DNA of 64,000 bases from NCBI GenBank assembly GCA_029288895.1, contig JARIGK010000002.1:29545-93544 (forward strand). Reading direction: 5' to 3'. The notes beneath the pieces were generated by a model, which saw nothing but the letters and a program-made list of their open reading frames with translations, made no database searches and was not told where the DNA came from. The translations under genes and the position numbers were made by a program. Shown here in pieces: positions 11,294 to 59,494 of the stretch (position 1 is its first letter; every line of letters begins with the position of its first letter). This DNA comes from Candidatus Adlerbacteria bacterium (GTDB lineage Bacteria; Patescibacteriota; Minisyncoccia; Phycocordibacterales; SBAW01).

Positions 11294-12451
11294 ATGTGGC
11301 CTGTGGGCATTTTTTTGTTGTGCGCTTCCATTGTGTTGCGGGTCATTTCCTACCCAGTCATTACCTCCGACTACACATACTTCTTAAAGGAATGGTTCAA
11401 CGCCCTTTCCACGCCTGGCCTTTCCGCCTTTACCAGCCCCTTTGCCGACTACGCGCCTCTCTACCTTTACCTAATCAAGTTCTTGACCCTCTTCCCTGTT
11501 TCGAGCCTCTATAGCATCAAGACACTCTCTGTCGTGTTTGATGTTGGTATCACGGCGCTTACATGCCTCATCCTCTATATGCTTGGTATTACAGATAGGG
11601 CGCGGTTGTTCCTTTCATTTGCGATTGTATTCATCACGCCAACCTTCTTGGTGAATAGCGCGCTCTGGGGTCAGTCCGACTCGCCATACGCGTTCTTTGT
11701 ATTACTTTCGTTTTACTTTTTACTGAGAGACAAACCGTCGTTTGCAACGCTCTCGTTTTCCGTGGCTCTGTGTCTCAAGGTACAGGCGATATTCTTCCTG
11801 CCTATTCTTGCAGGCTACCTCTTCCGCCGCAGAGAAGACTTGCCCTACATTGTGCTTGTGCCGATTGTTTTTTTGGCGAGCATCTTGCCTGCGTGGGTTG
11901 CGGGCGGCTCGTTCTCATATTGGTTTATGATCTACGCAAAACAGTCGGGCGAATATACGAGCCTTTCTGTCTCGGCGCAGAGTCTATTGTCGTACGCACA
12001 AGCGCTCTACTTCCCCGGACCTGTACAGAACGCACTTTTTTGGATATCGATCATCGCTTCGCTTTTGGCGGCGCTTTATATATTCGTCCTTGTTGCACGC
12101 GCAGGCCTCTCGGGCCCCGAGCGTATGATGCTGCTCACACTTTTGTGCGTCGCGCTTCTCCCGTACCTCCTTCCGCGCATGCACGAACGGTATTTCTACT
12201 TGGCTGATGTCTTTGCCGTACTCTTCGCACTGTGGCGGCCGCGCGCGTGGTACATTGCGGTGCTTGTGGTGCTCTCGTCGCTTCTTTCGTATCAACCATT
12301 TCTCTCACAACTCTCATTTGTAAAAGCACTTCCCTACGTCGACTTGCGCATGCCTGCGACCATACTTCTCTTTGCAATTATTTTTATCGTGGCCGAAGTT
12401 CGACGCACTCCTGAAATTGAGCATGAAGACGCGCGCTTCAGTCTGCCTTAA
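11294..12451 (+). CDS. GT-C fold integral-membrane glycosyltransferase (DUF2029/GT87-like).
   Basis: 385 aa polytopic membrane protein. It has the HERYFY-type motif typical of DUF2029 mannosyl/glycosyltransferases. It is the first gene of the plus-strand polysaccharide cluster. Confidence 0.55.
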   Translation: MWPVGIFLLCASIVLRVISYPVITSDYTYFLKEWFNALSTPGLSAFTSPFADYAPLYLYLIKFLTLFPVSSLYSIKTLSVVFDVGITALTCLILYMLGITDRARLFLSFAIVFITPTFLVNSALWGQSDSPYAFFVLLSFYFLLRDKPSFATLSFSVALCLKVQAIFFLPILAGYLFRRREDLPYIVLVPIVFLASILPAWVAGGSFSYWFMIYAKQSGEYTSLSVSAQSLLSYAQALYFPGPVQNALFWISIIASLLAALYIFVLVARAGLSGPERMMLLTLLCVALLPYLLPRMHERYFYLADVFAVLFALWRPRAWYIAVLVVLSSLLSYQPFLSQLSFVKALPYVDLRMPATILLFAIIFIVAEVRRTPEIEHEDARFSLP

Positions 12452-12570
12452 TGGTTGCCCGCGTATGGTGGCATTACACGAGGCCCTAAAACAGTTTTTG
12501 GACCCGTTGCAATCTGTAGAACTTATGAGCCCTTTAGTCAGAGCTTCGCTCCAAGCTCGTCCACATACAT

Positions 12571-13698
12571 ATGACCAAACCCATATCGCTGTCGATTTTC
12601 TTCCCCACCTACAATGAGGAAGACAACATTCGCGAAACTGTGCTGCGCACCATTGATGTAGTTGAAGGCTCACCCTACGTTGATGAGTACGAAATTCTCG
12701 TCGTAAACGACGGCAGTAAAGACAAAACTCTCGAGATCGCGCGCGAACTTGAGCGTGACTACCCCGGCGTGCGCGTGGTAAACCACGAACAAAACAAAGG
12801 CTATGGCGCTGCGCTTAAAAGCGGCATGGCTGCAGCAACGAAAGACTACGTCTTTTTTACCGATGCCGACTTACAGTTCGATATTAAAGAATTGCAAAAC
12901 TTGCTGGTGCACTTGGACACGCACCCTGTTGTCATTGGCTATCGCGCGCCCCGCCGCGACAGTGCGATGCGCCTTTTTAATGCGTGGGGGTGGAACAAGC
13001 TCAACCGTTTATTGTTTGGCCTGCGTATCCGCGATATCGACTGCGCATTTAAACTCTTCCGTCGCAGCGAACTGCAGAAAATAAAATTGAAATCAAAAGG
13101 CGCAATGATCAGTGCCGAAACATTGATCCGCCTCACACGCCGCAATGTGGCCGTCAAAGAGGTACCGGTCTCTCACTTGCCGCGTACCGCGGGCTCGCCC
13201 ACGGGCGCCAAGCCGTCGGTTATTTTGCGCGCGTTCCAGGAAATGATTGAACTCTATCGTGGCGAATTAGGTGGTGCAACACAAAAAGAAGCGTTGCGTT
13301 TTATGTCGGTCGGCGTCATCAACACACTGCTTGATGCTGCGATCTACATCATGCTCACGCGTGGTATGGAATTCTTCGCTGTGCACCTGACGGTCGCAAA
13401 GTTTGTCTCATTCTTGGGCGGCACGCTCTCAAGTTTGCTCTTAAACCGCAGTTGGACCTTTGGTATCCGTACGCCTCTTACAACCGGCGAAGTTGTGCGT
13501 TTCTACACGACGACCTCGGCTGCAATTGTCGTCAACGTACTCGTGATGAATGCACTCGTTGGTGCGGGTATGTACGACTTGCTGGCGCTTGCAGTCACTA
13601 CCGTCTTTACTTTCGCGGTTAACTTCACCCTCTCGAAATTCTGGGTCTTCCGCCAAAAGGATGCCCCATCTGCTCAACAAAAAGGCTATGCGATTTAA
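12571..13698 (+). CDS. GT2 glycosyltransferase (polyprenyl-phosphate sugar synthase-like, DPM1/GtrB-type) fused to a C-terminal GtrA-like 4-TM domain.
   Basis: IFFPTYNEEDNI and VVNDGSKDKT GT2-A motifs. The C-terminal 120 aa carry GtrA-like TM helices (MSVGVINTLLDAAIYIML..., KFWVFRQ). Confidence 0.8.
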   Translation: MTKPISLSIFFPTYNEEDNIRETVLRTIDVVEGSPYVDEYEILVVNDGSKDKTLEIARELERDYPGVRVVNHEQNKGYGAALKSGMAAATKDYVFFTDADLQFDIKELQNLLVHLDTHPVVIGYRAPRRDSAMRLFNAWGWNKLNRLLFGLRIRDIDCAFKLFRRSELQKIKLKSKGAMISAETLIRLTRRNVAVKEVPVSHLPRTAGSPTGAKPSVILRAFQEMIELYRGELGGATQKEALRFMSVGVINTLLDAAIYIMLTRGMEFFAVHLTVAKFVSFLGGTLSSLLLNRSWTFGIRTPLTTGEVVRFYTTTSAAIVVNVLVMNALVGAGMYDLLALAVTTVFTFAVNFTLSKFWVFRQKDAPSAQQKGYAI

Positions 13699-14179
13699 CT
13701 CACTTCTTACATCACCCATATTCCACGCCGTAGCGAAAAAGCCCGCTAAGACTGAAAAGCAACACGCTACTTCTACAACTCCAGCGCCTGTACAAGCAAC
13801 GCCTGTGGTTGTAGCGACCAGCACACATCCCGTGCCACCTCCGGCGGCTCATACAGCAACGACGAGTGCGGCGACATCGTCTGCTCCTGTCGCGGCAACA
13901 ACTGTGGGGGGCAAACAATCATCAGCGCAAACACGAACACTCTCTACCAGCGTTGGCGTAGTTTCGGCGCCAGAACATAGCACACTCCTTAACCCCTATG
14001 CGGGCGCAGGCGGCCTTACGCCTGTGGGTACGGCAAGCCTCGTGCTTGGTGCCGCGGTGATGGCAAGCCTCGGCCTCCTCTTTGTGCGCGGAGAAACGCT
14101 CGGAAACTCGTACGAGCGCCTGGTGCGATTTATTGGGGTCAAGGCCCCGCCCCGTGCTGTGCGTTCACGTCACGCATAA
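13688..14179 (+). CDS. Ala/Thr/Pro-rich low-complexity protein with a C-terminal hydrophobic anchor (hypothetical).
   Basis: Same frame as ORF-track 13550..14179, with the probable start at the ATG overlapping the GT2 stop. The sequence reads ATSTTPAPVQATPVVVATSTHPVPPPAAHTATTSAATSSAPVAATT... followed by LVLGAAVMASLGLLFV. Confidence 0.4.
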   Translation: MRFNSLLTSPIFHAVAKKPAKTEKQHATSTTPAPVQATPVVVATSTHPVPPPAAHTATTSAATSSAPVAATTVGGKQSSAQTRTLSTSVGVVSAPEHSTLLNPYAGAGGLTPVGTASLVLGAAVMASLGLLFVRGETLGNSYERLVRFIGVKAPPRAVRSRHA

Positions 14180-14191
14180 ACAAACACATAT

Positions 14192-15409
14192 ATGGTGTCG
14201 CGATTGCTGGGCTACATATTGCTCCTGTGTGCAGCTGTGCTCATAGGCGTGGCAATTTATCGCAACTCGACCAAGAGCGAAGTGCCGCTTACCTTTGCGC
14301 CCAACCAAGTGCTTGACGCAACGTGGGTTGCGTACAAAAAAACTTTCATCGAGGCAGGAACCTTCCGCACCTTAGATAAACAGCGCGGCGACATTACCAC
14401 ATCGGAAGGCCAGAGCTACACGATGCTGCGCGCAGTGTGGATGGGCGATAAAGATACCTTCGATGGTGCATGGAAGTGGACCGGGAGCTATCTCCATCGA
14501 AATGATGATCATTTGTTTTCGTGGCTGTGGGGCCAGCGCCCGGGTGGTGCATACGGCGTGATCACAGAACAGAGCGGTCAAAACACCGCGTCGGATGCCG
14601 ATGAAAATATTGCGCTTGCACTTATCTTCGCCTACGCACGCTGGCAAGACCCCGCATATCTGGCGAGTGCGCGCGACATAGTGGGCGACATCTGGGATAA
14701 GGAGGTGATCGTCATTGGCGGCGTCCCCTACCTCACCGCAGACAACTTAGAAAAAACATCCGCGAGCCAAACTGCAGTGCTCAACCCGTCCTACATGGAG
14801 CCTGCGGCGTACAAAATCTTTGCCGCTATCGACCCGACGCATCCGTGGAACAAACTCGCCGACAGTTCGTACATCGTTCTGCAAAAAAGCATGAACGCAG
14901 AACTGGGGAGCGGTGCATCTGCTGGCCTTCCGCCCAACTGGGTTGGGATCGACAAAACATCAGGGAGCCTTGTGCCGCTGCCTGGCACAAACGACACCAA
15001 CTATAGCTACGACGCGATGCGCGTGCCATGGAATATCGCGCTCGACTGGCAATGGTTTGGCGACAAACGTGCACAGACCCTCCTTTCGAAGATGTCGTTC
15101 TTGGGGGCGCAGTGGGACAAGAACCACGCACTTGCAAGCGTCTACAACCACGCAGGCGGTACGGTCACTCCGGAAGAATCGCCGGCCATCTACGGAGGCG
15201 ACCTCGGCTACTTCCTTGTTGCGCAACCGGTAAAGGCAAAAGACGTGTACGAACAAAAGCTCCTCTTCCTCTACAACCCTGGCCTTAACGACTGGAAGCA
15301 ACAACTTTCCTACTACGACGCAAATTGGGTGTGGTTTGGCATCGGGCTCTACAACAATTTGCTCCCCAACTTAGCAAACGACGTACCAAAGACCGCGATT
15401 ACTCATTAA
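14192..15409 (+). CDS. Glycoside hydrolase family 8 endo-beta-1,4-glucanase (BcsZ/CelA-like) with an N-terminal signal anchor.
   Basis: TTSEGQSYTM (the GH8 catalytic-acid region SEGQ.Y), ASDADENIALALIF and an aromatic-rich C-terminus. The size is 405 aa. Confidence 0.8.
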   Translation: MVSRLLGYILLLCAAVLIGVAIYRNSTKSEVPLTFAPNQVLDATWVAYKKTFIEAGTFRTLDKQRGDITTSEGQSYTMLRAVWMGDKDTFDGAWKWTGSYLHRNDDHLFSWLWGQRPGGAYGVITEQSGQNTASDADENIALALIFAYARWQDPAYLASARDIVGDIWDKEVIVIGGVPYLTADNLEKTSASQTAVLNPSYMEPAAYKIFAAIDPTHPWNKLADSSYIVLQKSMNAELGSGASAGLPPNWVGIDKTSGSLVPLPGTNDTNYSYDAMRVPWNIALDWQWFGDKRAQTLLSKMSFLGAQWDKNHALASVYNHAGGTVTPEESPAIYGGDLGYFLVAQPVKAKDVYEQKLLFLYNPGLNDWKQQLSYYDANWVWFGIGLYNNLLPNLANDVPKTAITH

Positions 15410-15419
15410 CAAAACGCGT

Positions 15420-16979
15420 ATGAACACGAACTACGATCACACACCACACGACCTCCGCACCGACTTTTTGGAAACAAAGACGCCTAAGATGCTGTTTGTC
15501 ATAAACGCAGTGCTTGCGGTGGCATATTTTGCCGTACTCGTGTTCTTCTTCCCTATCGGCAACAAGCTATTGTTTGCGTTGCTTATCGCAGGCGAAATAT
15601 TCCACCTGTGGCAGGTGCTCACCTTCCTCTATACGGTGTGGGATACAGAATATGAGGCACCGCGGAACCCATCATTCCATCCGCCTGTCGATGTGTTTAT
15701 TACCGTGGCAGGCGAACCTGTCGAGCTCGTACAAAAAACAGTGGCCGCTGCGCGCGCAATGAACTACCCGAACTTTGATGTCTATATATTGAATGACGGC
15801 TACGTTGCGGGCAAAGACAACTGGCGCGACATCGAAGCGCTCGCGAGCCGCATGGCGGTCAATTGCATTACACGCACAGTGCCTGGTGGTGCCAAAGCCG
15901 GCAACATTAACAATGCACTCAAATTAACGAAGAGCCCGCTTGTAGCAATATTTGACGCCGACCATGTGCCGCGCGGCGACTTCTTGCGCGCAACGGCTGC
16001 CTACTTTGCCGACCCTACGGTGGCCTTTGTGCAGACGCCGCAGTTCTACAAAAACTATAGCGAAAACTTCATCACCAAAAGCTCGTGGGAACAGCAAGAA
16101 CTTTTCTTCGGGCCCATCTGCAAAGGTAAAAATCGGTTAAACGCAGCGACCATGTGCGGCACCAACATGTTGATTTCGCGCGAGGCACTTGTTGATGTGG
16201 GCGGTATGTGTACCGAGTCGATCGCGGAAGATTTTATCACCGGCCTTATGATCCACGCGCGCGGGTGGCGTTCTGTCTACCATGGAGAAGTGTTGGCCGA
16301 AGGGTTGGCTACAGAAGATCTTCTGTCATATTCAAAGCAACAGTTCCGCTGGGCACGCGGCGCGCTTGATGTTATCTTCCGCTACAACCCGCTTTTTATG
16401 CGTGGGTTGTCATGGGCGCAAAAAATACAGTACTTGGCGTCGGCGAGCTTCTACCTCTCTGGATTGTTCGTGGTGCTTGATGCACTTCTCCCCGTTATTT
16501 ACTTCTACACCGGCACTGTGCCTGTGATCATCTCCGGCATGCTCTTGGCCTCCTTCTTTTTGCCGTACCTCTTCTTTACGTTCTACGTCATTCAACGCAC
16601 CAGTAACTCAACCTTTACCTTCCCGAGCCTTGGCTTCTCGATGGGCAGCTTCAATATCCAATTGCAAGCGCTCTACTCGGCAGCGACATTCCAACGTTCA
16701 GCATTCGGCATCACGCAAAAGAAAAAACTTGAAGGTAATTTCGTTGGGCTGGTCAAATGGCACATTGCTTATGCGGCACTGGTCGTGGGCGGCATCGTTG
16801 TGGCCTTCCTACGCGAAGGGTTCTCGGCGTCGCTCTTCAATAACATTGCGTGGGGCGCATTGAATATCATCATCTTCCTGCCGTTTATCCGTGCCGCATT
16901 CCCTGAACGTACACGCAATCAGTCTGTACCGCTCGGGACACCTGTAGCACAGAGAACATATGCCGTACGAAAACACTAA
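15420..16979 (+). CDS. Processive family-2 beta-glycosyltransferase (cellulose synthase/BcsA-like catalytic core) with no PilZ domain.
   Basis: DAD (IFDADHVP), TED-like (AEDFITG) and QxxRW (QQFRWARG) motifs. It has 2 N-terminal and about 4-5 C-terminal TM helices and is 519 aa. Confidence 0.8.
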   Translation: MNTNYDHTPHDLRTDFLETKTPKMLFVINAVLAVAYFAVLVFFFPIGNKLLFALLIAGEIFHLWQVLTFLYTVWDTEYEAPRNPSFHPPVDVFITVAGEPVELVQKTVAAARAMNYPNFDVYILNDGYVAGKDNWRDIEALASRMAVNCITRTVPGGAKAGNINNALKLTKSPLVAIFDADHVPRGDFLRATAAYFADPTVAFVQTPQFYKNYSENFITKSSWEQQELFFGPICKGKNRLNAATMCGTNMLISREALVDVGGMCTESIAEDFITGLMIHARGWRSVYHGEVLAEGLATEDLLSYSKQQFRWARGALDVIFRYNPLFMRGLSWAQKIQYLASASFYLSGLFVVLDALLPVIYFYTGTVPVIISGMLLASFFLPYLFFTFYVIQRTSNSTFTFPSLGFSMGSFNIQLQALYSAATFQRSAFGITQKKKLEGNFVGLVKWHIAYAALVVGGIVVAFLREGFSASLFNNIAWGALNIIIFLPFIRAAFPERTRNQSVPLGTPVAQRTYAVRKH

Positions 16980-18498
16980 AACACCAACAAGAGATATAGT
17001 GCTGCTCGTATGCATTATGCTCATTCCGCTTGCCTTGTCCGCCTTCTTCTTTATGGGGCAGAGCTTGCGGCTCGACGAAGCACAGAGCCTCTGGCAAACC
17101 AGCCGCAGCGTGTCAGCTATCTTCAAGCAAGTGGGCAGCGATGTGCACGTCCCCTTCTACCACCTATTACTGCACTTCTGGCAGATATATTTTGGCGCGA
17201 CAATTGTCTCGGCGCGCCTGATGTCGCTGCTGTTTTACGAACTCTCGATCCCTGCGCTCTACCTGCTTGGGCGAACAAGCTTTAACCGCCGCATTGGGCT
17301 GTATGCTGCATTTCTCTTTGCACTCTCGCCGTTTATGAATTGGTATGGCAACGAGATACGCATGTACACGCTGTTTACGTTCTTCACTATTTTGAACCAA
17401 TACTTCTTTGTACGTATATGGAAAGCGCGCACGAGCCTTGCGGGCGAAGAGCAGCGGCAGTCGCATATATGGGCTGGATACATTCTCACCGCCGTGTTTG
17501 GCGTCTTCTCGCACTACTTTTTCTTCCTCAACCTGCTTGCACAAGTTGTATTTTATTTTGTGCGATGGAAGACATTCCCCGAGGGATCGTTCCGCCGGTT
17601 TCTCTTTTCTGCGGGGGTTGTCGTCGCGGCATTTGTGCCGTGGGTGCTGTATGTGCTGCGCTTGGGAACCATTGGTTTCCAAGAGCCGCTGCTTACGCCG
17701 CCCACATCAGTGAATCTCTTTAGCACGTTTGCACAATTTCTCTTTGGTTTCCAAAACGACAACATTAACACCTTCTTCTTGGCGCTGTGGCCATTGGTTG
17801 TAGTGTTGGCGCTCTTAGCGCTGCGGCGCAAACGTCGTGCGCTGCCCGAGACAGAATATTTCTTGGCGACCATTATTCTTTCCTTTGCGGTGGCGTTCGT
17901 AGTGAGCTTGGCCATAGCGCCTGTATTCGTAAGCCGCTACCTTATCTTTACGATCCCCTCCTTTTACCTATTGCTCGGCAGTTTGTTTGTCACGTATGAA
18001 GCGCGGTTTGCGGTATTTCTTCAGCGTTCGCTCGCATTGCTCATGGTGGTGATGTTGGCGGTCGAGATTGCGAGCCCAAGTACGCCGGTGAAGGAAAATT
18101 ACGAGCAAGCGACTGCCTACATCAGCGCGCATGCGACACCGCAAGATGTGATTGTGTTGTCGGCGCCGTTTACGCTCTACCCAGTGCAGTACTACTACCG
18201 CGGCGCGTCGCCTATCGAGACTCTGCCGCTGTGGGATAGATACGATTTTGGCCCCATCCCGCCGTTTGTTGCTGCAAACTTAGAGAGTGAGGCCAAAACT
18301 GCCGTAGGAAGCAGCCAGAATGTGTATTTGTTGTTGTCGTACGACCAGGGCTACGAGAAGACAGTGTATGACTACTTCAACTCACACTACCAGATGGTCG
18401 ACAAGGAGCATTTCTCGGATGACCTTAACTTGTACGTGTACAAGTTGCGCTACGACACGGCCAAAACGAGTCAGGCGACAACAACGGCTCTGCGCTAA
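16960..18498 (+). CDS. GT-C fold membrane glycosyltransferase, PMT_2/ArnT-like (GT39/GT83-like).
   Basis: 512 aa with more than 10 TM helices and an ArnT-like N-terminal region (SARLMSLLFYELSIPALYLLGR). It overlaps the upstream gene by 20 nt. Confidence 0.6.
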   Translation: MPYENTKTPTRDIVLLVCIMLIPLALSAFFFMGQSLRLDEAQSLWQTSRSVSAIFKQVGSDVHVPFYHLLLHFWQIYFGATIVSARLMSLLFYELSIPALYLLGRTSFNRRIGLYAAFLFALSPFMNWYGNEIRMYTLFTFFTILNQYFFVRIWKARTSLAGEEQRQSHIWAGYILTAVFGVFSHYFFFLNLLAQVVFYFVRWKTFPEGSFRRFLFSAGVVVAAFVPWVLYVLRLGTIGFQEPLLTPPTSVNLFSTFAQFLFGFQNDNINTFFLALWPLVVVLALLALRRKRRALPETEYFLATIILSFAVAFVVSLAIAPVFVSRYLIFTIPSFYLLLGSLFVTYEARFAVFLQRSLALLMVVMLAVEIASPSTPVKENYEQATAYISAHATPQDVIVLSAPFTLYPVQYYYRGASPIETLPLWDRYDFGPIPPFVAANLESEAKTAVGSSQNVYLLLSYDQGYEKTVYDYFNSHYQMVDKEHFSDDLNLYVYKLRYDTAKTSQATTTALR

Positions 18499-19800
18499 TT
18501 AGTGCGCGTTTTGCGCCAAGCCTTGTGCGTACTGCTGCCACCAGGTACCTGCTGAGGGGCCGCCATTGCAGTAGCCATCGCTTTCTCCTGGGGTTTTGAC
18601 CCACAAGTAGGCGTCAACAAGTGCGTTGCCCGTTGATGTGGTTGGGGCTTGGCCAATTGCGCGGCCAGATGGGTTGCACCAGTCGCCGTTTGAACCATTG
18701 CCGTTGCGGCTTGTGTCGATAATGAAGTGCGATGTTTTACCAATTTTCTGCTGGAGGGCTGCGCTAATCTGCGAGCCGTACGATGCTTCGCTTGCAGTGC
18801 CGTCGAAGTTGGAGACATTCAACGAGAAGCCATCCGCTTGCGCAATATTTGCAGCTGCGAGACGGCCTGCCATAACAGATGGGTCGTTCCATCCAGAGTG
18901 GCCGGCATCAAGGTAGACCTTTGTGTTTCCGTTTTGCTTCAAGATCTGCACCGCTTGGCTCAAAAGCGAGTAGCGCGTGCTTTGGTCGCCTGAGGAGAGG
19001 CACGTGATATTTGCGAGCGCGTCAGGCTCCAAGATAACGGTTGCAGGAGATGAGCCAATGCCTGAAGCAAGAGAGCGGATCCAATTTATATAGTTTGATT
19101 GGCTTGTGCCGCCCGATGAATACCCACCGCAGTCGCGGCCTGGGATGTCGTAGGCAACCATCACGGCATTTTTACCTCCTGCGTTTGCGACAAGCGAGTG
19201 GGCATCGTTTTGGATATTCGAATTCCAATCACCAAACCATGTTGCAACTGGTTGCGATGCCAATGCTTGGATGCCGCTCTTCGCTACGCTTGTATTCGGG
19301 TTTACATAGAAACCGTTTGTAGAGAATTGAACAGGGCTCTGCAGCGTAAAAGTCTGCGTAGGCTGAACAGCAGTTACTGTTGGAAACGATGCTGGCGCCA
19401 CAGTTGCTGGTTGGTCGATGTAGATCTGCTCAGACTGCTGAGCGATAACCGCGCCGTTTTTGCGCTCGATAAAGTTAATAGTATATGGGCCTGAGCCGCG
19501 CCAGTTCCATCCGGAGACATTTACGCTTGCCTCTTTGTGCTGGTAGTCGGTGTAGTTGTTGTCCATGGGGACCCACTGCCCGCCGTCGACTTGCCAAAAC
19601 ATGTCGTACTGGGAGACGTCGGTGCCCGGCACCATTGCCTTAAATGGCTGCGTGCCGGTAACATGGGCGCCATTGGTTGGCCACCAGACGTTAACGTCCG
19701 ACGCAGCAGTCACAAGCGGCAAGCCATAGAGATAGATTGATAACGCTATTGTTAAGAGTGTGAGAACTCGCACCTTCTTCACGTTATGTACAGTTTTCAT
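18499..19800 (-). CDS. Secreted glycoside hydrolase family 6 (cellulase/cellobiohydrolase-like) with a novel ~95-aa N-terminal module.
   Basis: Signal peptide MKTVHNVKKVRVLTLLTIALSIYLYGLPLVTAAS. GH6 motifs ILEPDALANI and DAYLWVKTPGESDG. The ORF track extends to 19905; the internal start at 19800 is preferred because of the signal peptide. Confidence 0.75.
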   Translation of the reverse strand: MKTVHNVKKVRVLTLLTIALSIYLYGLPLVTAASDVNVWWPTNGAHVTGTQPFKAMVPGTDVSQYDMFWQVDGGQWVPMDNNYTDYQHKEASVNVSGWNWRGSGPYTINFIERKNGAVIAQQSEQIYIDQPATVAPASFPTVTAVQPTQTFTLQSPVQFSTNGFYVNPNTSVAKSGIQALASQPVATWFGDWNSNIQNDAHSLVANAGGKNAVMVAYDIPGRDCGGYSSGGTSQSNYINWIRSLASGIGSSPATVILEPDALANITCLSSGDQSTRYSLLSQAVQILKQNGNTKVYLDAGHSGWNDPSVMAGRLAAANIAQADGFSLNVSNFDGTASEASYGSQISAALQQKIGKTSHFIIDTSRNGNGSNGDWCNPSGRAIGQAPTTSTGNALVDAYLWVKTPGESDGYCNGGPSAGTWWQQYAQGLAQNAH

Positions 19801-19977
19801 AACTTCACGAGTATAAAGATCTCGTTCCCTTGACCGCAACGCACTTCCTATCCCACAGTCAAAAATTTTCAAATCGTTGTTCTCTGTAATGCTCAAAAAC
19901 TTCATGAACCAACATGACGTTTTAACAATAGCGCATTAGCAATTCATCATCTGTGGATGAGATTTTCTTGCGTTATA

Positions 19978-20012
19978 AAAAATCCCCTGAGCGGGGATTT
20001 TTCTTGTATGTT
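19978..20012 (-). terminator. Rho-independent terminator (AAAATCCCC-TGAGC-GGGGATTTT) for the minus gene ending at 20021.
   Basis: 9-bp GC-rich stem followed by TTTTTTAT on the minus strand. Confidence 0.55.
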
Positions 20013-55558: not shown

Positions 55559-55569
55559 AACTTGTTTTG

Positions 55570-55640
55570 TGGACCCGGCGAGAATCGAACTCGCGCCTCT
55601 GCAATGCGAATGCAGCGTTGTACCACTTAACTACGGGCCC
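55570..55640 (-). tRNA. tRNA-Ala (anticodon CGC).
   Basis: Manual fold: acceptor GGGCCCG/CGGGUCC with G3:U70 (the Ala identity element), anticodon loop UUCGCAU and T-arm GGUUCGAUUCC. CCA is not encoded. Confidence 0.8.
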
Positions 55641-55670
55641 ATCGCTCAATATATAGAGCGGGAAACTGGT

Positions 55671-55739
55671 CGGGATGCCGAGAATCGAACTCGGGTCTTA
55701 CGCACCCGAAGCGTACATAATGCCACTATACGACATCCC
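55671..55739 (-). tRNA. tRNA-Pro (anticodon CGG).
   Basis: Manual fold: 5' GGGATGT..., anticodon stem-loop UACGC-UUCGGGU-GCGUA and T-arm GAGUUCGAUUCUC. Confidence 0.7.
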
Positions 55740-55788
55740 GTACTCCTCAAACCGCTCCGCGCATATCGGGTTTGCATCGCGAAGCGTG

Positions 55789-55862
55789 TGCACCTTGTAG
55801 GGCTCGAACCTACGACCTCACCCGTGTGAAGGGTGCGCTCTAGCCAACTGAGCTAAAGGTGC
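55789..55862 (-). tRNA. tRNA-Val (anticodon CAC).
   Basis: Manual fold: D-arm AGCUCAGUUGGCUAGAGC, anticodon loop UUCACAC and T-arm GGUUCGAGCCC. Confidence 0.8.
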
Positions 55863-56335: not shown

Positions 56336-56372
56336 CACCTCCGCCACCTCGGCGGAGTTTTCTTTTACTGCG
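56336..56372 (+). terminator. Rho-independent terminator CTCCGCC-ACCTC-GGCGGAG plus TTTTCTTTT.
   Basis: 7-bp GC stem and a U-tract immediately after the third tiny ORF. Confidence 0.55.
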
Positions 56373-58101
56373 TGTAGATATTTATTGATTTGGTGGAGAT
56401 TGCAGTACCGCTTGAGTTCGTGCTGGTAAAGGTTATGGTGTACGGCCCTGCACCCTTCCAGTGCCAACCACTAAGGTCGACGAGCGCTTCTTTGTGTGGA
56501 TAGTCTTGCGAGCTGTTGTACATCTGCACGCGCGCACCTCCGTCGACAGACCAGTACATGGTGTATTGCGAGACATCAAGTCCACTGACCATTGCCTTAA
56601 ATGGTTGCGTGCCAGTTACATGCGAGCCGTCGGATGGCCACCAAATGTTGGTTACGCTGCTGCCCGATGGTGGCGGTGTGCTTGGCGGAGGCTGCGAGCC
56701 TGCACTCACCGTTATAGTTGCAGCGCTGTCGTTCCAGCTGTAGGTCTTGGACCAGTCACCCGTAAAGACACCAATCTTAAACGTGTAGGTGCCCGCACTA
56801 TTTGGCATAAAGCTTCCGCCAAACGTTTTTGTTTGCCCTTGGCTAAAGTTTTGCCCACCTTGGAAGGTTTGATACACGCGTGTGCCGCCTTGGTACACCT
56901 CCAAGTCAACCAGTGTGCCGCTCGTGCTGCCCGCAGTCTCTGTAACATTTGCCGAAATTTGCACTGTCTGCCCCACAGTTGCAGTGGCTGGCGCACCGGC
57001 GCTTGTACTAAACGTTACCGAACTTGGCGGCGGGTTTGATGGCGTCGTGCCACTAAGCCACCACTGTTTAAGCGTCTGCTCTGCCGGTTTGTTTTGCGGC
57101 GTGTAGTCAGTGTCGCCAGCTCCGCCCGCATTTGGATTGCTCTTCCACCACCACATATCGACACCTGTCATGTACGAATATTTGTTCCAGTAATCAAACA
57201 GCGCGGTATAGTCATTTATCTGTTCTTGCGAATTATAGTTGCCGCTCATGCCAGAGTCCCAGGGGAAGCTGTGAGCATTGTCGACGCTTCTATATCCAAT
57301 TTCGGTAAAGATAATTGGCTTTGTTGGATACTTTTGGTGGATTGGGTTGATGTCGTAATCGTTCATCCCCTGCCAGTCGCTTTCAAGGGAGGCAACCGAA
57401 CCGTCGCCAAACAATCCGTAGTAGCCCGACACGCCGATCAAATCGAGCTTATCCCAAAAGCCAATATTTGGAAGTTCTGCGCCCCACGCGGTGTGATCTT
57501 GCTCGCCACGGTTGGCGCTATAGCTAAGCGCACCGCTATATACCGCGCGTACATTTGCGATCATCGTATTCCATCGCTGCGTGTTGTCACTATTTGTATT
57601 GGCCGACGCCATACTAATGAGTTCGGCACCCAAGACAAACTGCTCCACTCCATACTGCTGGCCCAGCCTGCCGTAGTACACGAGCGTGTTGCCATAGTTT
57701 CGGTACCACGTGTCGCGATCGCCCGGGTTAATCACGGCGCGCCACTCGCCCGAATATGTTTCCAAATAGAGCGCAATACTTACGTGGAGCCCAATCGAGT
57801 GCGCGTATTGGATGGCAGAAATAAGCGACGAGTCGGACGGCGTGTTCCATCCGCGGCCAATGTCAGTACTGCCCGAGTTCGATTGATAGTACGGGATGAT
57901 CAGGTTTACATAGTTCGCACCATCGGCTTTTAAATTTCGCAGCGATTGCTGGAACGAGGCCGAACTATAATCTTCTGTCCCTTGCGGGATGATGCTAAAA
58001 CTTTTCTGCCAACTGCTTACCGCCGCCTCTGCGTGTGGCACATATCCAAATTGCCCAATAAAAAGACCCACTAGTGCAACTATTGAAATAGCCTTTTTCA
58101 T
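56365..58101 (-). CDS. Secreted multidomain glycoside hydrolase. It has an N-terminal TIM-barrel GH-A-clan-like catalytic domain (mannanase/glucanase-like), a middle Ig/CBM-like domain, and a C-terminal ~95-aa module shared with the GH6 at 18499..19800.
   Basis: Signal peptide MKKAISIVALVGLFIGQFGYVPHAEA, candidate nucleophile motif IIFTEIGY, and Thr/Pro linkers. The C-terminus reads WWPSDGSHVTGTQPFKAMVSGLDVSQY...GPYTITF. Exact GH family is not resolved. Confidence 0.65.
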   Translation of the reverse strand: MKKAISIVALVGLFIGQFGYVPHAEAAVSSWQKSFSIIPQGTEDYSSASFQQSLRNLKADGANYVNLIIPYYQSNSGSTDIGRGWNTPSDSSLISAIQYAHSIGLHVSIALYLETYSGEWRAVINPGDRDTWYRNYGNTLVYYGRLGQQYGVEQFVLGAELISMASANTNSDNTQRWNTMIANVRAVYSGALSYSANRGEQDHTAWGAELPNIGFWDKLDLIGVSGYYGLFGDGSVASLESDWQGMNDYDINPIHQKYPTKPIIFTEIGYRSVDNAHSFPWDSGMSGNYNSQEQINDYTALFDYWNKYSYMTGVDMWWWKSNPNAGGAGDTDYTPQNKPAEQTLKQWWLSGTTPSNPPPSSVTFSTSAGAPATATVGQTVQISANVTETAGSTSGTLVDLEVYQGGTRVYQTFQGGQNFSQGQTKTFGGSFMPNSAGTYTFKIGVFTGDWSKTYSWNDSAATITVSAGSQPPPSTPPPSGSSVTNIWWPSDGSHVTGTQPFKAMVSGLDVSQYTMYWSVDGGARVQMYNSSQDYPHKEALVDLSGWHWKGAGPYTITFTSTNSSGTAISTKSINIYTQ

Positions 58102-58331
58102 TCCACAACCCTATCTCATCGGCACTGTAGCAGAGGTGAATTAAGAAGAGTTTATGAAACAAGCAATTGCTATTTTTGACAAATAGAAATTTTATGCTAG
58201 ATTACTACCGCTGTTCTTTATATATCAGATCGGACCTCCGACCCAGTAAATACAACGTTTATTGGCCCGGAGGTCTGATGACCTGTCCTGCTTTTGGCGT
58301 CCGCCACAAGCATCTCAAGGAGAGACTGCAA

Positions 58332-59306
58332 ATGAAGCATCGTATCCTGGCCTTCGCGGCCGTCGCCATGGTGGCGGGATTCGCTCCCCTCACCTCGGCT
58401 TTCGCCCAGAACCAGTCGGTCGGTTGCCCGGCCGGCGGCACCTGTCTGATGACAGGCGGTGAAAAGGGCGACTACTACAAGTACTTCGGCAAACCCGTTG
58501 CCGAAGTCTTGGCGAAGGTCGCCTGGGACGACGTGACCGTGTCGACGTCCAAGGGAACGCCGGACAACATGACGTCCGTGGCCGCCAACCCGGGCAACTA
58601 TGGCCTCGGCCAGGCCAACGTCGTCGCCAAACTGATCAACACCGAGCCGTACAAGGGCAAGGTGCAGATCGTCAACACCCAGTCGATCGGCCAGGAGCTC
58701 GTGTTTCTTGTCGTCTCGCCGAAGCTCTACGAGCGGGCGTCGTTCTATGGCACGATCGCCAACAACGCGGCCAACGTGAAGTTCGTGATGCCGGGCAAGG
58801 ATACTGGCCCCGGCGTGACGTTCGACCAGCTCACCGAGCTCGATCCGCGGCTGCAGAAGGCCAAGAGCGTCGAGCGCGTCAATTCGGTGGACGATGCCAT
58901 CGACGTGGTGGCCAGCGGCCAGGCGCAGGCGACTCTCGTGGTCCAGTTCGCCAACCCGAACAACGATCGCTTCAAGATCATCAAGGAGAAGGGCCTCCGG
59001 ATCGTCCCGGTGCGCCATCTCCCGATGCTCAGCGTGAAGCTGCCGGGCGGCCAGTCGGCCTTCGTGGCCTGCGGCGGCCAGGAAGTCGGCGACAAGGAGC
59101 CCACCTCGGGCGTCTGCACGCCCATCGTGCTGATGACGGGTGTCGCCAATACGAACCCGAAGATCGCCGATTTGGCGAACGTGCCGAGCGACCAGTTCGC
59201 GCCGAAGGATGTGTCCTTCGCCGCCTTCTGGAAGAAGGCCAAGGCGGCAGCCGCCAAGGCCACGGCCGAGGCAGCAACCTGGGCTAACGAGAAGATCGGC
59301 GGGTAA
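58332..59306 (+). CDS. Secreted periplasmic-type solute-binding protein (TAXI-TRAP/PhnD-like type-2 PBP fold). The gene is high-GC and probably horizontally acquired.
   Basis: AAGGAGAG SD and signal peptide MKHRILAFAAVAMVAGFAPLTSAFA. The GGTCLMTGGEKGDYYKYFG motif resembles the TAXI TGGTGG.YY motif. GC is above 60 %, with GCC/GGC/CTC/CCG codon bias unlike the neighbours. The ORF-track start at 58167 is a spurious extension. Confidence 0.65.
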   Translation: MKHRILAFAAVAMVAGFAPLTSAFAQNQSVGCPAGGTCLMTGGEKGDYYKYFGKPVAEVLAKVAWDDVTVSTSKGTPDNMTSVAANPGNYGLGQANVVAKLINTEPYKGKVQIVNTQSIGQELVFLVVSPKLYERASFYGTIANNAANVKFVMPGKDTGPGVTFDQLTELDPRLQKAKSVERVNSVDDAIDVVASGQAQATLVVQFANPNNDRFKIIKEKGLRIVPVRHLPMLSVKLPGGQSAFVACGGQEVGDKEPTSGVCTPIVLMTGVANTNPKIADLANVPSDQFAPKDVSFAAFWKKAKAAAAKATAEAATWANEKIGG

Positions 59307-59312
59307 CTCCTC

Positions 59313-59352
59313 TGGTCTGACAGATACCGACCCCCACGCGAGCAATTGCTTG
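59313..59352 (+). terminator. Terminator hairpin CCCCCACGCGAGCAATTGCTTGTGTGGGGG plus TTATTTTTTA.
   Basis: Long GC stem with G-U pairs, then a U-tract after the PBP gene. Confidence 0.5.
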
Positions 59353-59384
59353 TGTGGGGGTTATTTTTTATACAAAATTGCTCA

Positions 59385-59418
59385 AACAAAAAACCTCCCT
59401 AAGGAGGTTTTTTGTTAT
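59385..59418 (-). terminator. Bidirectional hairpin AACCTCC-CTAA-GGAGGTT with U-tracts on both sides, downstream of tRNA-Ala(UGC).
   Basis: 7-bp stem flanked by A6 and T6. Confidence 0.5.
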
Positions 59419-59421
59419 TTG

Positions 59422-59494
59422 TGGACCCTACCGGGATCGAACCGGTCGCCTCCTCATTGCAAATGAGGCGCTCTACCAAATGAGCTAAGGGCCC
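59422..59494 (-). tRNA. tRNA-Ala (anticodon UGC).
   Basis: Manual fold: acceptor with G3:U70, D-arm AGCUCAUUUGGUAGAGC, anticodon loop UUUGCAA and T-arm GGUUCGAUCCC. Confidence 0.85.

Follow-up and report, generated by a model that had tools for sequence, protein, structure and literature searches.

Two secreted glycoside hydrolases encoded in the window (the whole 64,000-nt stretch of DNA that was analysed), one of family GH6 and one of family GH113, share a module of ~95 residues that is an old, fixed and strongly conserved part of two enzyme architectures and is almost confined to the Patescibacteria (CPR). The module forms a sequence family without an entry in Pfam, NCBIfam or the PDB sequences, and it is predicted to adopt a known kind of fold, an immunoglobulin/Fn3-like β-sandwich. 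A binding or anchoring role is the best functional guess for it. The reading that we prefer, with a probability of roughly 0.45, is that the module is a glycan- or cell-wall-targeting domain that holds secreted hydrolases on an envelope β-1,4-glycan.

Architecture of the two enzymes

The GH6 gene is located on the minus strand at 18499..19800. The mechanical open reading frame of 468 aa extends to 19905; the ATG at 19800 (M36), where the earlier note had also placed the end of the gene, is the more plausible and probable start because it puts the signal peptide at the N-terminus. From this start, the minus strand encodes a signal peptide or anchor (19702-19800), the first copy of the module (19420..19695, aa 71-162 of the 468-aa frame), which forms the mature N-terminus of the enzyme, a Pro/Thr linker (~19285-19419) and the catalytic domain (18502-19284). 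The enzyme belongs to GH6, as seen from a Pfam match at aa 208-448 of the same frame (E 4.5e-65) and from the catalytic-centre motifs DIPGRDC, EPDAL and PGESDG, which were read directly in the translation. Its closest solved relatives in the PDB were M. tuberculosis Cel6/CelA1 (1up0, 3.5e-63) and T. fusca E2. A terminator-like hairpin was observed upstream of the GH6 gene start region.

The second gene (56365..58101, minus strand) encodes a signal peptide (58024-58101), a catalytic domain (57091-57975), a CARDB/BatD-like Ig 'mid' domain (~56692-57033), a Pro/Ser linker (56653-56691) and, at the extreme C-terminus, the second copy of the module (56374..56652, aa 484-576), all on the minus strand. 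The catalytic domain, previously described as GH-A-type, was assigned to GH113 (PF22612, a family of clan GH-A) by a Pfam match at aa 43-337 (E 6.9e-47) that covered 279 of the 289 profile positions, and its relatives in the PDB were the β-1,4-mannanases 5ylh and 4cd6. When scanned alone against Pfam, the mid domain was BatD-like (E 8.3e-5), and its homologues exceeded the CARDB threshold; no further copies of it were found within the window.

The sharing of the module between the two enzymes, first claimed in the earlier note, is real, and a tblastn search with each module against the whole window revealed no copy besides these two. Its description there as a discrete mobile domain also agrees with the layout, in which it is N-terminal after the signal peptide in GH6 and C-terminal behind the Pro/Ser linker in GH113.

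Fold and sequence family of the module

The Ig-like (E-set) fold is taken here as a confidently predicted two-sheet sandwich of 7-8 strands and about 90-100 residues. Both copies were predicted by AF2 as an Ig/Fn3-like sandwich of this kind, with eight strands, pLDDT values of 95.5 and 95.1 and pTM values of 0.87 and 0.86, and they superposed significantly on solved Ig-like domains. The best structural matches were the Ig-like modules of mannanases and Fn3-like X1 modules. According to these models, the fold is a known one and not a new one. The earlier note had proposed that the module is novel, and it named a confident match to a CBM or FN3/Ig family as the criterion that would remove this novelty. 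By that criterion the novelty is reduced, because both copies were predicted as Ig/Fn3-like with high confidence: it stands for the sequence family and falls for the fold.

At E<=10, the Pfam search with the module returned noise only, NCBIfam gave no match, and the PDB sequences, queried both with one sequence and with a profile built from 44, gave E 0.08 at best. Against the curated Ig-like families, the window copies produced nothing or, at best, 13.1 bits for PKD_4 (cut-off 27), and they remained under the gathering cut-off in Big_9, PKD, PKD_4, Big_1, fn3 and Bact_surface_Ig-like. The 44 members showed sub-threshold Pfam matches, every one of them to Ig-like families; in one relative (P0014), Big_9 scored 27.1 bits (cut-off 23.6) for the full-length protein, but none of its individual stretches passed. 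The sub-threshold PKD, Big_1 and Big_9 matches are yielded by a motif of the F-G hairpin, 'tFtAkD..Gn....v.I.V', which the module has in common with these families. Compared with them and with X1, however, the module has its own signature and is nearly CPR-only, and its window copies stay below every gathering cut-off in Pfam. None of the CBM models in Pfam matched either protein or any of the 44 members, which, for CBM families that have a Pfam model, bears out the earlier statement that no CBM family fits. A T9SS C-terminal sorting domain (Por_Secre_tail) was rejected, as NCBIfam gave no match to it, GH6 enzymes carry the module at their N-terminus, and it can be repeated up to five times in tandem, whereas such a sorting domain would be a single copy at the extreme C-terminus. 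No description of the module or of the gene cluster described below was found in the literature on CPR cellulases, CBMs, GH6, GH113 and cellulose synthase.

The mannanase Ig-like 'linker' domains of Thermotoga petrophila TpMan (6tn6) and Cellulomonas fimi Man26A (2bvt) are only 11-19% identical to the module, and neither 2bvt nor 6tn6 appeared in the profile search of PDB sequences at E<=10. These domains are located directly after the catalytic domain and before the CBM, whereas the window module lies at a free terminus behind a Pro-rich linker and can be tandem; in the GH113 enzyme, unlike in TpMan and Man26A, the post-catalytic position is taken by the different, CARDB-like Ig domain. The module thus belongs to the TpMan/Man26A type neither by sequence homology nor by architectural place. 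The X1 modules of Clostridium thermocellum CbhA (3pdd, 3pdg, 3pe9) are Fn3-like and, like the module, occur in tandem in secreted glycanases. The TpMan/Man26A Ig-like domains and the X1 modules are not known to bind carbohydrate, and a spacing or stabilising role is discussed for them (PMC3966859). A further likeness is to type A/B CBMs (CBM2, CBM3): the module is a predicted β-sandwich of about 100 residues, terminal, linker-attached and often tandem, found on cellulases and equipped with conserved Trp, His and charged residues. Unlike these CBMs, it has no sequence match to any Pfam CBM model, and its CBM-like role is putative.

Distribution and conservation of the module family

The Patescibacteria are mostly uncultured, and the building of their envelope and their attachment to hosts is the area on which the module family may bear. 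In an exhaustive profile search, 581 representative proteins were identified at E<=1e-3 and 205 at E<=1e-30, with one to five copies each, and nearly all of the 581 were from the CPR. Among the GTDB species representatives, a set without the window's own genome, the module was found at 172 places with a best module identity of 66-67%; 65 of the 80 loci listed were labelled as CPR lineages, and a few carriers were MAGs with Chloroflexota, Gammaproteobacteria or Clostridia labels, which may be mis-binned. Proteins of 2.5-4.7 thousand aa in which only profile positions ~88-125 matched, many times over, were taken as generic Big-type repeats and excluded.

The partners of the module included GH5, GH6, GH8, GH12, GH26, GH44 and GH113 as well as wall hydrolases (Peptidase_M23 in 6/35, CHAP in 2/35), and other carriers were an S8 protease, a caspase-like protein and PA14 proteins. 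GH6 and GH113 enzymes made up about 90% of the module proteins in the species-representative genomes, and the family (about 580 representative proteins) tags a limited set of recurring secreted enzymes, mainly from these two families. The module was located at the N- or C-terminus behind Pro/Ser/Thr linkers, with tandem copies in some proteins, and one relative (P0154) had a genuine CBM_2 besides it. Two architectures were observed: a signal peptide followed by one or two modules, a PT-linker and GH6, and GH113 followed by a CARDB-like Ig domain, a PS-linker and the module.

Conservation of the module equals or exceeds that of the catalytic domains. When GH113 orthologues were compared with the window enzyme (n=48), the module was 57.4% identical, against 49.9% for the catalytic domain and 38.7% for the Ig mid domain, and the module exceeded the catalytic domain in 44 of the 48. 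For the GH6 orthologues (n=34), both the module and the catalytic domain were 56.5% identical to those of the window enzyme. Across 106 modules, Y35, W39, V41, W68, W70 and Y76 were invariant, while W9, W10, P11, K24, D42, H58, K59 and E60 were at least 93% conserved; the family signature comprises WWP, QPFKA, YxMYWQVDGG, DYPHKE, SGWxW and GPY.

Age of the duplication

The similarity between the modules of the GH6 and GH113 enzymes is far above chance. BLASTP aligned aa 71-162 of the former with aa 484-576 of the latter at 55/93 identical residues (59%), 74% positives and one gap (E 5e-33); this is below the ~65% given previously. At the DNA level, the best-matching 165 nt were 72% identical and the 231 aligned coding nt 66%. 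The 34-nt stretch that the earlier note quoted as an example of about 80% identity in places is present in both copies with 31/34 identical positions and exactly the three differences listed. Its high local identity reflects constraint at the protein level, because the invariant HVTGTQPFKAM motif is encoded there.

Between the two window copies, dS was saturated, third-codon-position identity was 48% and the same codon was used at only 27 of 50 identical residues. The window GH6 module was 75% and 71% identical to the GH6 modules of Adlerbacteria MAGs, and the window GH113 module was 64-67% identical to GH113 modules in other Patescibacteria; each copy therefore has closer counterparts in other genera (75%, 67%) than in the window, where the two are only 58% identical to each other. 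Among the 106 modules compared, the nearest neighbour shared the catalytic partner for 43 of 47 GH113 and 40 of 50 GH6 modules, and both architectures were found again in dozens of Patescibacteria genomes. The duplication is not recent, because dS is saturated, the copies are nearer to other genera and both architectures recur; the window copies are ancient paralogues, each kept with its own catalytic partner. The earlier suggestion of a recent duplication or domain shuffle inside this genome, for which the 31/34-nt stretch had spoken, is scarcely credible against the low overall nucleotide identity, the third-position divergence and the conservation of both architectures across the CPR, and recent duplication or gene conversion was rejected on saturated dS and same-partner nearest neighbours.

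Glycan-synthesis cluster around the GH6 gene

The GH6 gene is preceded in the window by a cluster of plus-strand genes identified with Pfam. Its upstream members are a GT87-like glycosyltransferase (11294-12451) and a GT2+GtrA polyprenyl-phosphate-sugar-synthase-like gene (12571-13698), and these two types of gene were found near GH6 again in five other loci. They are followed by a GH8 glucanase without the module (14192..15409, GH8 7e-40) in a BcsZ-type position beside the synthase, a cellulose-synthase-like processive GT2 (15420..16979, Glyco_tranf_2_3 5e-30, Cellulose_synt 3e-13) and a PMT_2-like membrane glycosyltransferase of the GT-C type (16960..18498, PMT_2 2e-8); this last gene runs towards the GH6 gene in convergent orientation, and its end abuts the GH6 stop codon. 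In related loci, a PMT_2 homologue was present beside the GH6 gene in 23, mostly in the same convergent arrangement; the cellulose-synthase-like GT2, PMT_2 and GH6 occurred together in at least 10, GH8 adjoined GH113 or GH6 in six, and GH113 directly adjoined GH6 in at least eight. The GH113 gene of the window is separated from this cluster by 37 kb.

In Streptomyces, the GH6 enzyme CslZ, whose gene lies beside that of the GT2 CslA, degrades peptidoglycan and so enables the deposition of a cellulose-like glycan; CslZ is a lipoprotein without a CBM or accessory module and did not bind peptidoglycan (PMC9040799). As in the Streptomyces cslA-glxA-cslZ (+lpmP) cluster (PMC9040799), a cellulose-synthase-like GT2 gene lies beside a GH6 endoglucanase gene of opposite orientation (15420-19905 in the window), and the cluster is widely conserved. 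This likeness rests on GT2 and GH6 family membership. Unlike the Streptomyces cluster, that of the CPR contains PMT_2-like GT-C, GT87, GT2-GtrA, GH8 and often GH113 genes, and no GlxA copper oxidase or LPMO gene was present among the main open reading frames of 11294-19905 in the window (GT87, GT2-GtrA, GH8, GT2, PMT_2 and GH6).

Proposed function and alternative explanations

We propose that the non-catalytic module would bind a β-1,4-linked glycan of the cell envelope, namely the polymer of the adjacent cellulose-synthase-like GT2/PMT-like cluster, the peptidoglycan that it crosses, or both, and that this binding would keep the secreted hydrolases on the target polymer. The analogue of such a system would be the Streptomyces cslA/cslZ(GH6) pair, and a CslA/CslZ-type system gives a rationale for one targeting domain common to glucanases and peptidoglycan hydrolases. 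M. tuberculosis is a non-cellulolytic organism, and the nearness of the GH6 catalytic domain to its Cel6 was therefore counted toward an envelope link. The candidate contact residues are the family-invariant aromatics W9, W68 and W70 together with K24, H58, K59, E60 and D64; their probable exposure was judged solely by hydropathy alternation along the predicted strands. Against glycan targeting, the S8 protease, caspase-like and PA14 carriers equally fit a general surface tether or protein docking, the GH113 gene is distant from the glycan cluster, P0154 has its CBM_2 in addition, the nearest structural relatives are not known to bind carbohydrate, and Streptomyces CslZ lacks a CBM and did not bind peptidoglycan.

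A more specific version of the targeting reading is possible but doubtful: the proteins may be the founding member set of a new Patescibacteria-specific CBM family for envelope β-1,4-glycan or peptidoglycan, own or host's, which would co-localise GH6/GH113/GH8 and M23/CHAP hydrolases with the conserved cellulose-synthase-like/PMT-like machinery. Many CPR would then make a surface glycan layer of the CslA/CslZ type and remodel it, possibly for host attachment. If the module binds an envelope glycan, it would define a new CBM family, and a module-GFP fusion would be a ready-made probe for the CPR surface polymer. The 'cellulases' would be reannotated from plant-biomass degradation to self-envelope remodelling, which would affect metabolic inferences from CPR metagenomes.

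Alternatively, the module could act as a conventional substrate-targeting CBM: it would bring scavenging glycanases onto insoluble food polymers of exogenous plant or algal origin (cellulose, mannan) and would be unrelated to the envelope of the cell itself. The predominance of cellulase and mannanase families among the partners, the terminal, linker-separated and sometimes tandem copies, the Trp-rich and highly conserved sequence, and the CBM_2 alongside the module in P0154, as in multi-CBM cellulases, are all consistent with this. CBMs that bind cellulose, CBM2 and CBM3 for example, are distributed over many phyla, whereas the module is nearly CPR-only; it also occurs on M23, CHAP and S8 enzymes, the GH6 gene keeps a tight and widespread synteny with the glycan-synthesis cluster, and typical genomes hold just the GH6/GH113 pair and no degradative arsenal. 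We consider a scavenging role unlikely.

It is quite unlikely that the module is a ligand-free structural spacer or stabiliser, as proposed for the TpMan/Man26A 'linker' domain and the CbhA X1/Fn3-like modules. These are its best structural matches, and their proposed roles are spacing, thermostabilisation and interdomain geometry (PMC3966859). However, the module is conserved like the catalytic domains or more, far above the spacer-like Ig mid domain (57% vs 39%), and the conservation of K24, H58, K59, E60, W9, W68 and W70 exceeds the requirements of the fold. It lies at a free protein end behind a flexible linker instead of being packed between a catalytic domain and a CBM, is N-terminal in GH6 and is present in up to five tandem copies. 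If it were only an Ig-like spacer, the finding would come down to one domain family that the databases lack.

A role in protein-protein docking or surface display, comparable to that of dockerin/cohesin pairs or SLH-type address tags and directed to a CPR S-layer, pilus, scaffold or host-cell protein, is distinctly improbable. The lineage-restricted range, the terminal placement and the near indifference to enzyme class, proteases included, would suit it, and a protein interface would be an equally good reading of the putative conserved face of charged and aromatic residues. However, the analysis turned up no candidate receptor or scaffold; tandem repeats and PT-linkers are seen more typically in CBMs, and the concentration of the module on GH6 and GH113 enzymes is unlike a broad secretome.

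Module shared by the GH6 and GH113 enzymes

The GH6 gene lies at 18499..19905 (-) as a mechanical ORF of 468 aa and the GH113 ORF, of 578 aa, at 56365..58101 (-). Pfam placed the GH6 catalytic domain at aa 208-448 (E 4.5e-65), with M. tuberculosis Cel6 as its nearest solved relative, and the GH113 domain at aa 43-337 (E 6.9e-47), whose nearest solved relatives are characterised beta-1,4-mannanases. The earlier note had described a module common to both enzymes, and the pairwise alignment bore this out: GH6 aa 71-162 and GH113 aa 484-576 were identical at 55/93 positions (59%), with one gap, in BLASTP (E 5e-33, far beyond chance), and the module DNA was 72% identical across the best 165 nt. The sharing is real, but both figures fell somewhat below those estimated in that note. 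The 34-nt shared stretch it quoted could be read from the alignment with exactly the three differences listed. Only two module copies were located in the 64-kb window by tblastn.

The most likely start of the GH6 protein is the ATG at 19800 (M36), not the mechanical 19905 (-). A start at this position gives MKTVHNVKKVRVLTLLTIALSIYLYGLPLVTAAS, a signal peptide or anchor immediately ahead of the module, and the short N-termini of the GH6 orthologues agree with it. The terminator-like hairpin of the gene upstream of GH6 was located at 19978-20002. The N-terminal h-region, at ~20 residues, is long, so the protein could keep this segment uncleaved as a membrane anchor.

In the GH113 enzyme, the module is preceded by an Ig-like mid domain (56692-57033 (-), aa ~357-470) with weak BatD/Wzt_C matches, whose homologues passed the CARDB threshold. 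Compared with the module, this domain diverges far more quickly (39% vs 57% identity). A cassette of mid domain and module was also observed at the N-terminus of the GH6 enzyme in related loci L054-L056 and L077.

Age of the two copies

Over 77 ungapped codons, the two copies showed a nucleotide identity of 66% and a third-position identity of 48%, and the same codon was used at 27/50 identical residues. The dN was 0.28, and the Nei-Gojobori dS was undefined because synonymous sites were saturated. The locally high DNA identity coincided with the invariant HVTGTQPFKAM motif and therefore reflects protein constraint, not recency.

A comparison of 106 modules, drawn from 80 related genomic loci and the window, placed each copy closer to modules with the same partner elsewhere. 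The window GH6 module reached 75% and 71% identity with its GH6 counterparts in two Adlerbacteria MAGs, and the window GH113 module 64-67% with the GH113 modules of Paceibacterota, Kaiserbacteria and Adlerbacteria MAGs, as against 58% between the two window modules. The nearest neighbour shared the catalytic partner for 43/47 GH113 and 40/50 GH6 modules. Together with the synonymous saturation and low third-position identity, this excludes the recent intragenomic duplication or domain shuffle proposed in the earlier note. Both architectures were seen again in dozens of genomes, one ordered as signal peptide, one or two modules, linker and GH6, the other as GH113, Ig mid domain, linker and module.

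Sequence family and fold

The Pfam profile search at E<=10 gave no match for copy 1 and three noise matches for copy 2, the NCBIfam search gave none, and the best hit among PDB sequences had an E of 0.08, even with a 44-sequence profile. Neither window copy reached the threshold of a curated Ig, Fn3 or CBM sequence family in Pfam and NCBIfam. AlphaFold2, run with family alignments, modelled each copy confidently as a beta-sandwich of eight strands (pLDDT 95.5 and 95.1), and the weak Pfam matches among family members were all Ig-like (PKD, Big_1, Big_9, Bact_surface_Ig-like), via the F-G hairpin; the fold is therefore Ig/Fn3-like and already of a known kind. The sequence family itself is uncurated.

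A word-indexed search identified 13 relatives from one sequence and 107 from a profile, and 1.84 billion representatives, searched exhaustively with the profile, yielded 581 proteins at E<=1e-3, of which 205 also passed E<=1e-30; each protein has between one and five module copies. Scanning one genome per GTDB species revealed 172 places with the module. Among the 80 loci listed, 65 carried Patescibacteria (CPR) labels, covering Paceibacterota/Parcubacteria, Saccharibacteria, Adler-, Kaiser-, Magasanik-, Doudna-, Wildermuth-, Taylor- and Peribacteria, while eight were labelled 'bacterium' only and seven otherwise. In GH113-module numbering, the family signature comprises W9-W10-P11, G19, Q21-P22-F23-K24-A25, Y35, M37, W39, V41-D42, M49, P57-H58-K59-E60, V63, W68, W70, G74, Y76 and F80. 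We put at about 0.9 our confidence that the module's CPR-typical sequence family is uncurated, that its fold is Ig/Fn3-like, and that the window copies are old paralogues travelling with their enzymes in these architectures. The family is strongly constrained.

The seven other MAG loci (L021, L036, L040, L044, L061, L070, L074) were labelled Clostridia, Gammaproteobacteria, Chloroflexota/Chloroflexia and Acidobacteriaceae, which could reflect wrong labels, faulty binning or genuine transfer beyond CPR; L061, at least, shows the CPR-type GH6-GH113 adjacency. Five giant proteins (P0128, P0137, P0138, P0140, P0208; 2,494-4,676 aa) had 19-37 module-profile matches each and look like generic Big/PKD-type repeat proteins. 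In the stretches listed, their matches span only the last ~35 profile positions, the F-G hairpin, and show the motif common to the module and bacterial Ig domains.

Enzyme partners and constraint

The module was always located at a free end, either following the signal peptide or forming the very C-terminus, separated from the rest by Pro/Ser/Thr linkers and frequently in tandem. A T9SS-type C-terminal domain was ruled out by the N-terminal and tandem occurrences and the absence of a model match. Among 226 fetched proteins, many of them fragments, BLAST identified GH6 in 29 and GH113 in 51. The Pfam partners of 35 other full-length relatives were Peptidase_M23 (6), GH8 (4), GH5 (4), GH12 (2) and CHAP (2), as well as GH44, GH26, S8, C14, PA14, fn3 and CBM_2, in architectures such as GH5-CBM_2-module, module(s)-GH8, S8 with two modules and GH26-fn3-module. 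The module has its fold in common with mannanase Ig-like domains and X1/Fn3-like modules; the former differ from it in architectural position, and its placement and tandem copies resemble those of CBMs. We class it with the Ig-like accessory modules that secreted hydrolases carry.

One rival reading takes the module as an ordinary substrate-directed CBM. One 651-aa relative (P0154) combines GH5 and a bona fide CBM_2 with a C-terminal module, so the module is no simple replacement for a cellulose-binding CBM. Another rival is an inert spacer or stabiliser, the role put forward for its nearest structural relatives (PMC3966859). Judged by sequence comparison, such a spacer should evolve like the mid domain, yet across 48 GH113 orthologues the mean identity to the window enzyme was 57.4% for the module, 49.9% for the catalytic domain and 38.7% for the mid domain. 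In 34 GH6 orthologues, module and catalytic domain each averaged 56.5%. A further rival reading takes the module as a protein-docking tag. From the hydropathy alternation of the predicted strands, W9, K24, H58, E60 and D64 would point away from the A-B-E sheet, and W68/W70 would fall within the loop and short strand that come next.

Gene cluster and proposed function

In the window, the GH6 gene runs convergently towards a PMT_2-like GT-C gene and directly borders it; ahead of the latter lie a cellulose-synthase-like GT2, GH8, GT2-GtrA and GT87 (cluster 11294-19905). A PMT_2 homologue adjoined GH6 in 23 related loci, mostly convergent as in the window, with a GT2 behind it in at least 10; the conserved loci include L018, L026, L031, L032, L042, L045, L052, L057, L058, L068 and others. 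GT87, GT2-GtrA, GH8 and, often, GH113 were near this conserved core; GH113 was immediately adjacent to GH6 in at least eight loci, GH8 adjoined GH6 or GH113 in six, and two-hit genomes usually held exactly one GH6 and GH113 pair. We found no published description of this conserved CPR cluster in the literature.

Streptomyces offers a precedent: there, a conserved cluster pairs the GT2 CslA with the GH6 gene cslZ in opposite orientation, and local degradation of peptidoglycan by CslZ and an LPMO allows a cellulose-like glycan to be deposited on the surface (PMC9040799). The CPR cluster is similar to cslA/cslZ and bcsA/bcsZ and suggests a self-made beta-glycan envelope layer. By analogy, the CPR GH6 may process, or clear a path for, a beta-1,4-glycan from the adjacent GT2/PMT-like machinery, with GH113 and GH8 often joining in its handling. 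The Ig-like module would then be a targeting element keeping these enzymes, and M23/CHAP wall hydrolases in other genomes, on the envelope polymer. That it binds at all is a prediction we consider somewhat favoured; an envelope glycan or cell wall target, as opposed to an external substrate, is more tentative. On the envelope reading, the module may prove to be an envelope-glycan-binding CBM associated with a CslA/CslZ-like system of the CPR.

Other features of the window

A GC-rich island of ~1.1 kb (58200-59400; 62.5% GC vs ~51% around) directly adjoins tRNA-Ala(TGC) at 59421-59494 and contains long ORFs overlapping on both strands. One of these, 58167-59306 (+), opens with what resembles a signal peptide and matched no Pfam model; the island gene could have been acquired horizontally. 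Between the DUF5667 and GH113 genes, a tRNA cluster at 55569-55862 (-) encodes Ala(CGC), Pro(CGG) and Val(CAC), and the mechanical ORF 55569-55829 (+), which overlaps these three tRNA genes, is spurious.
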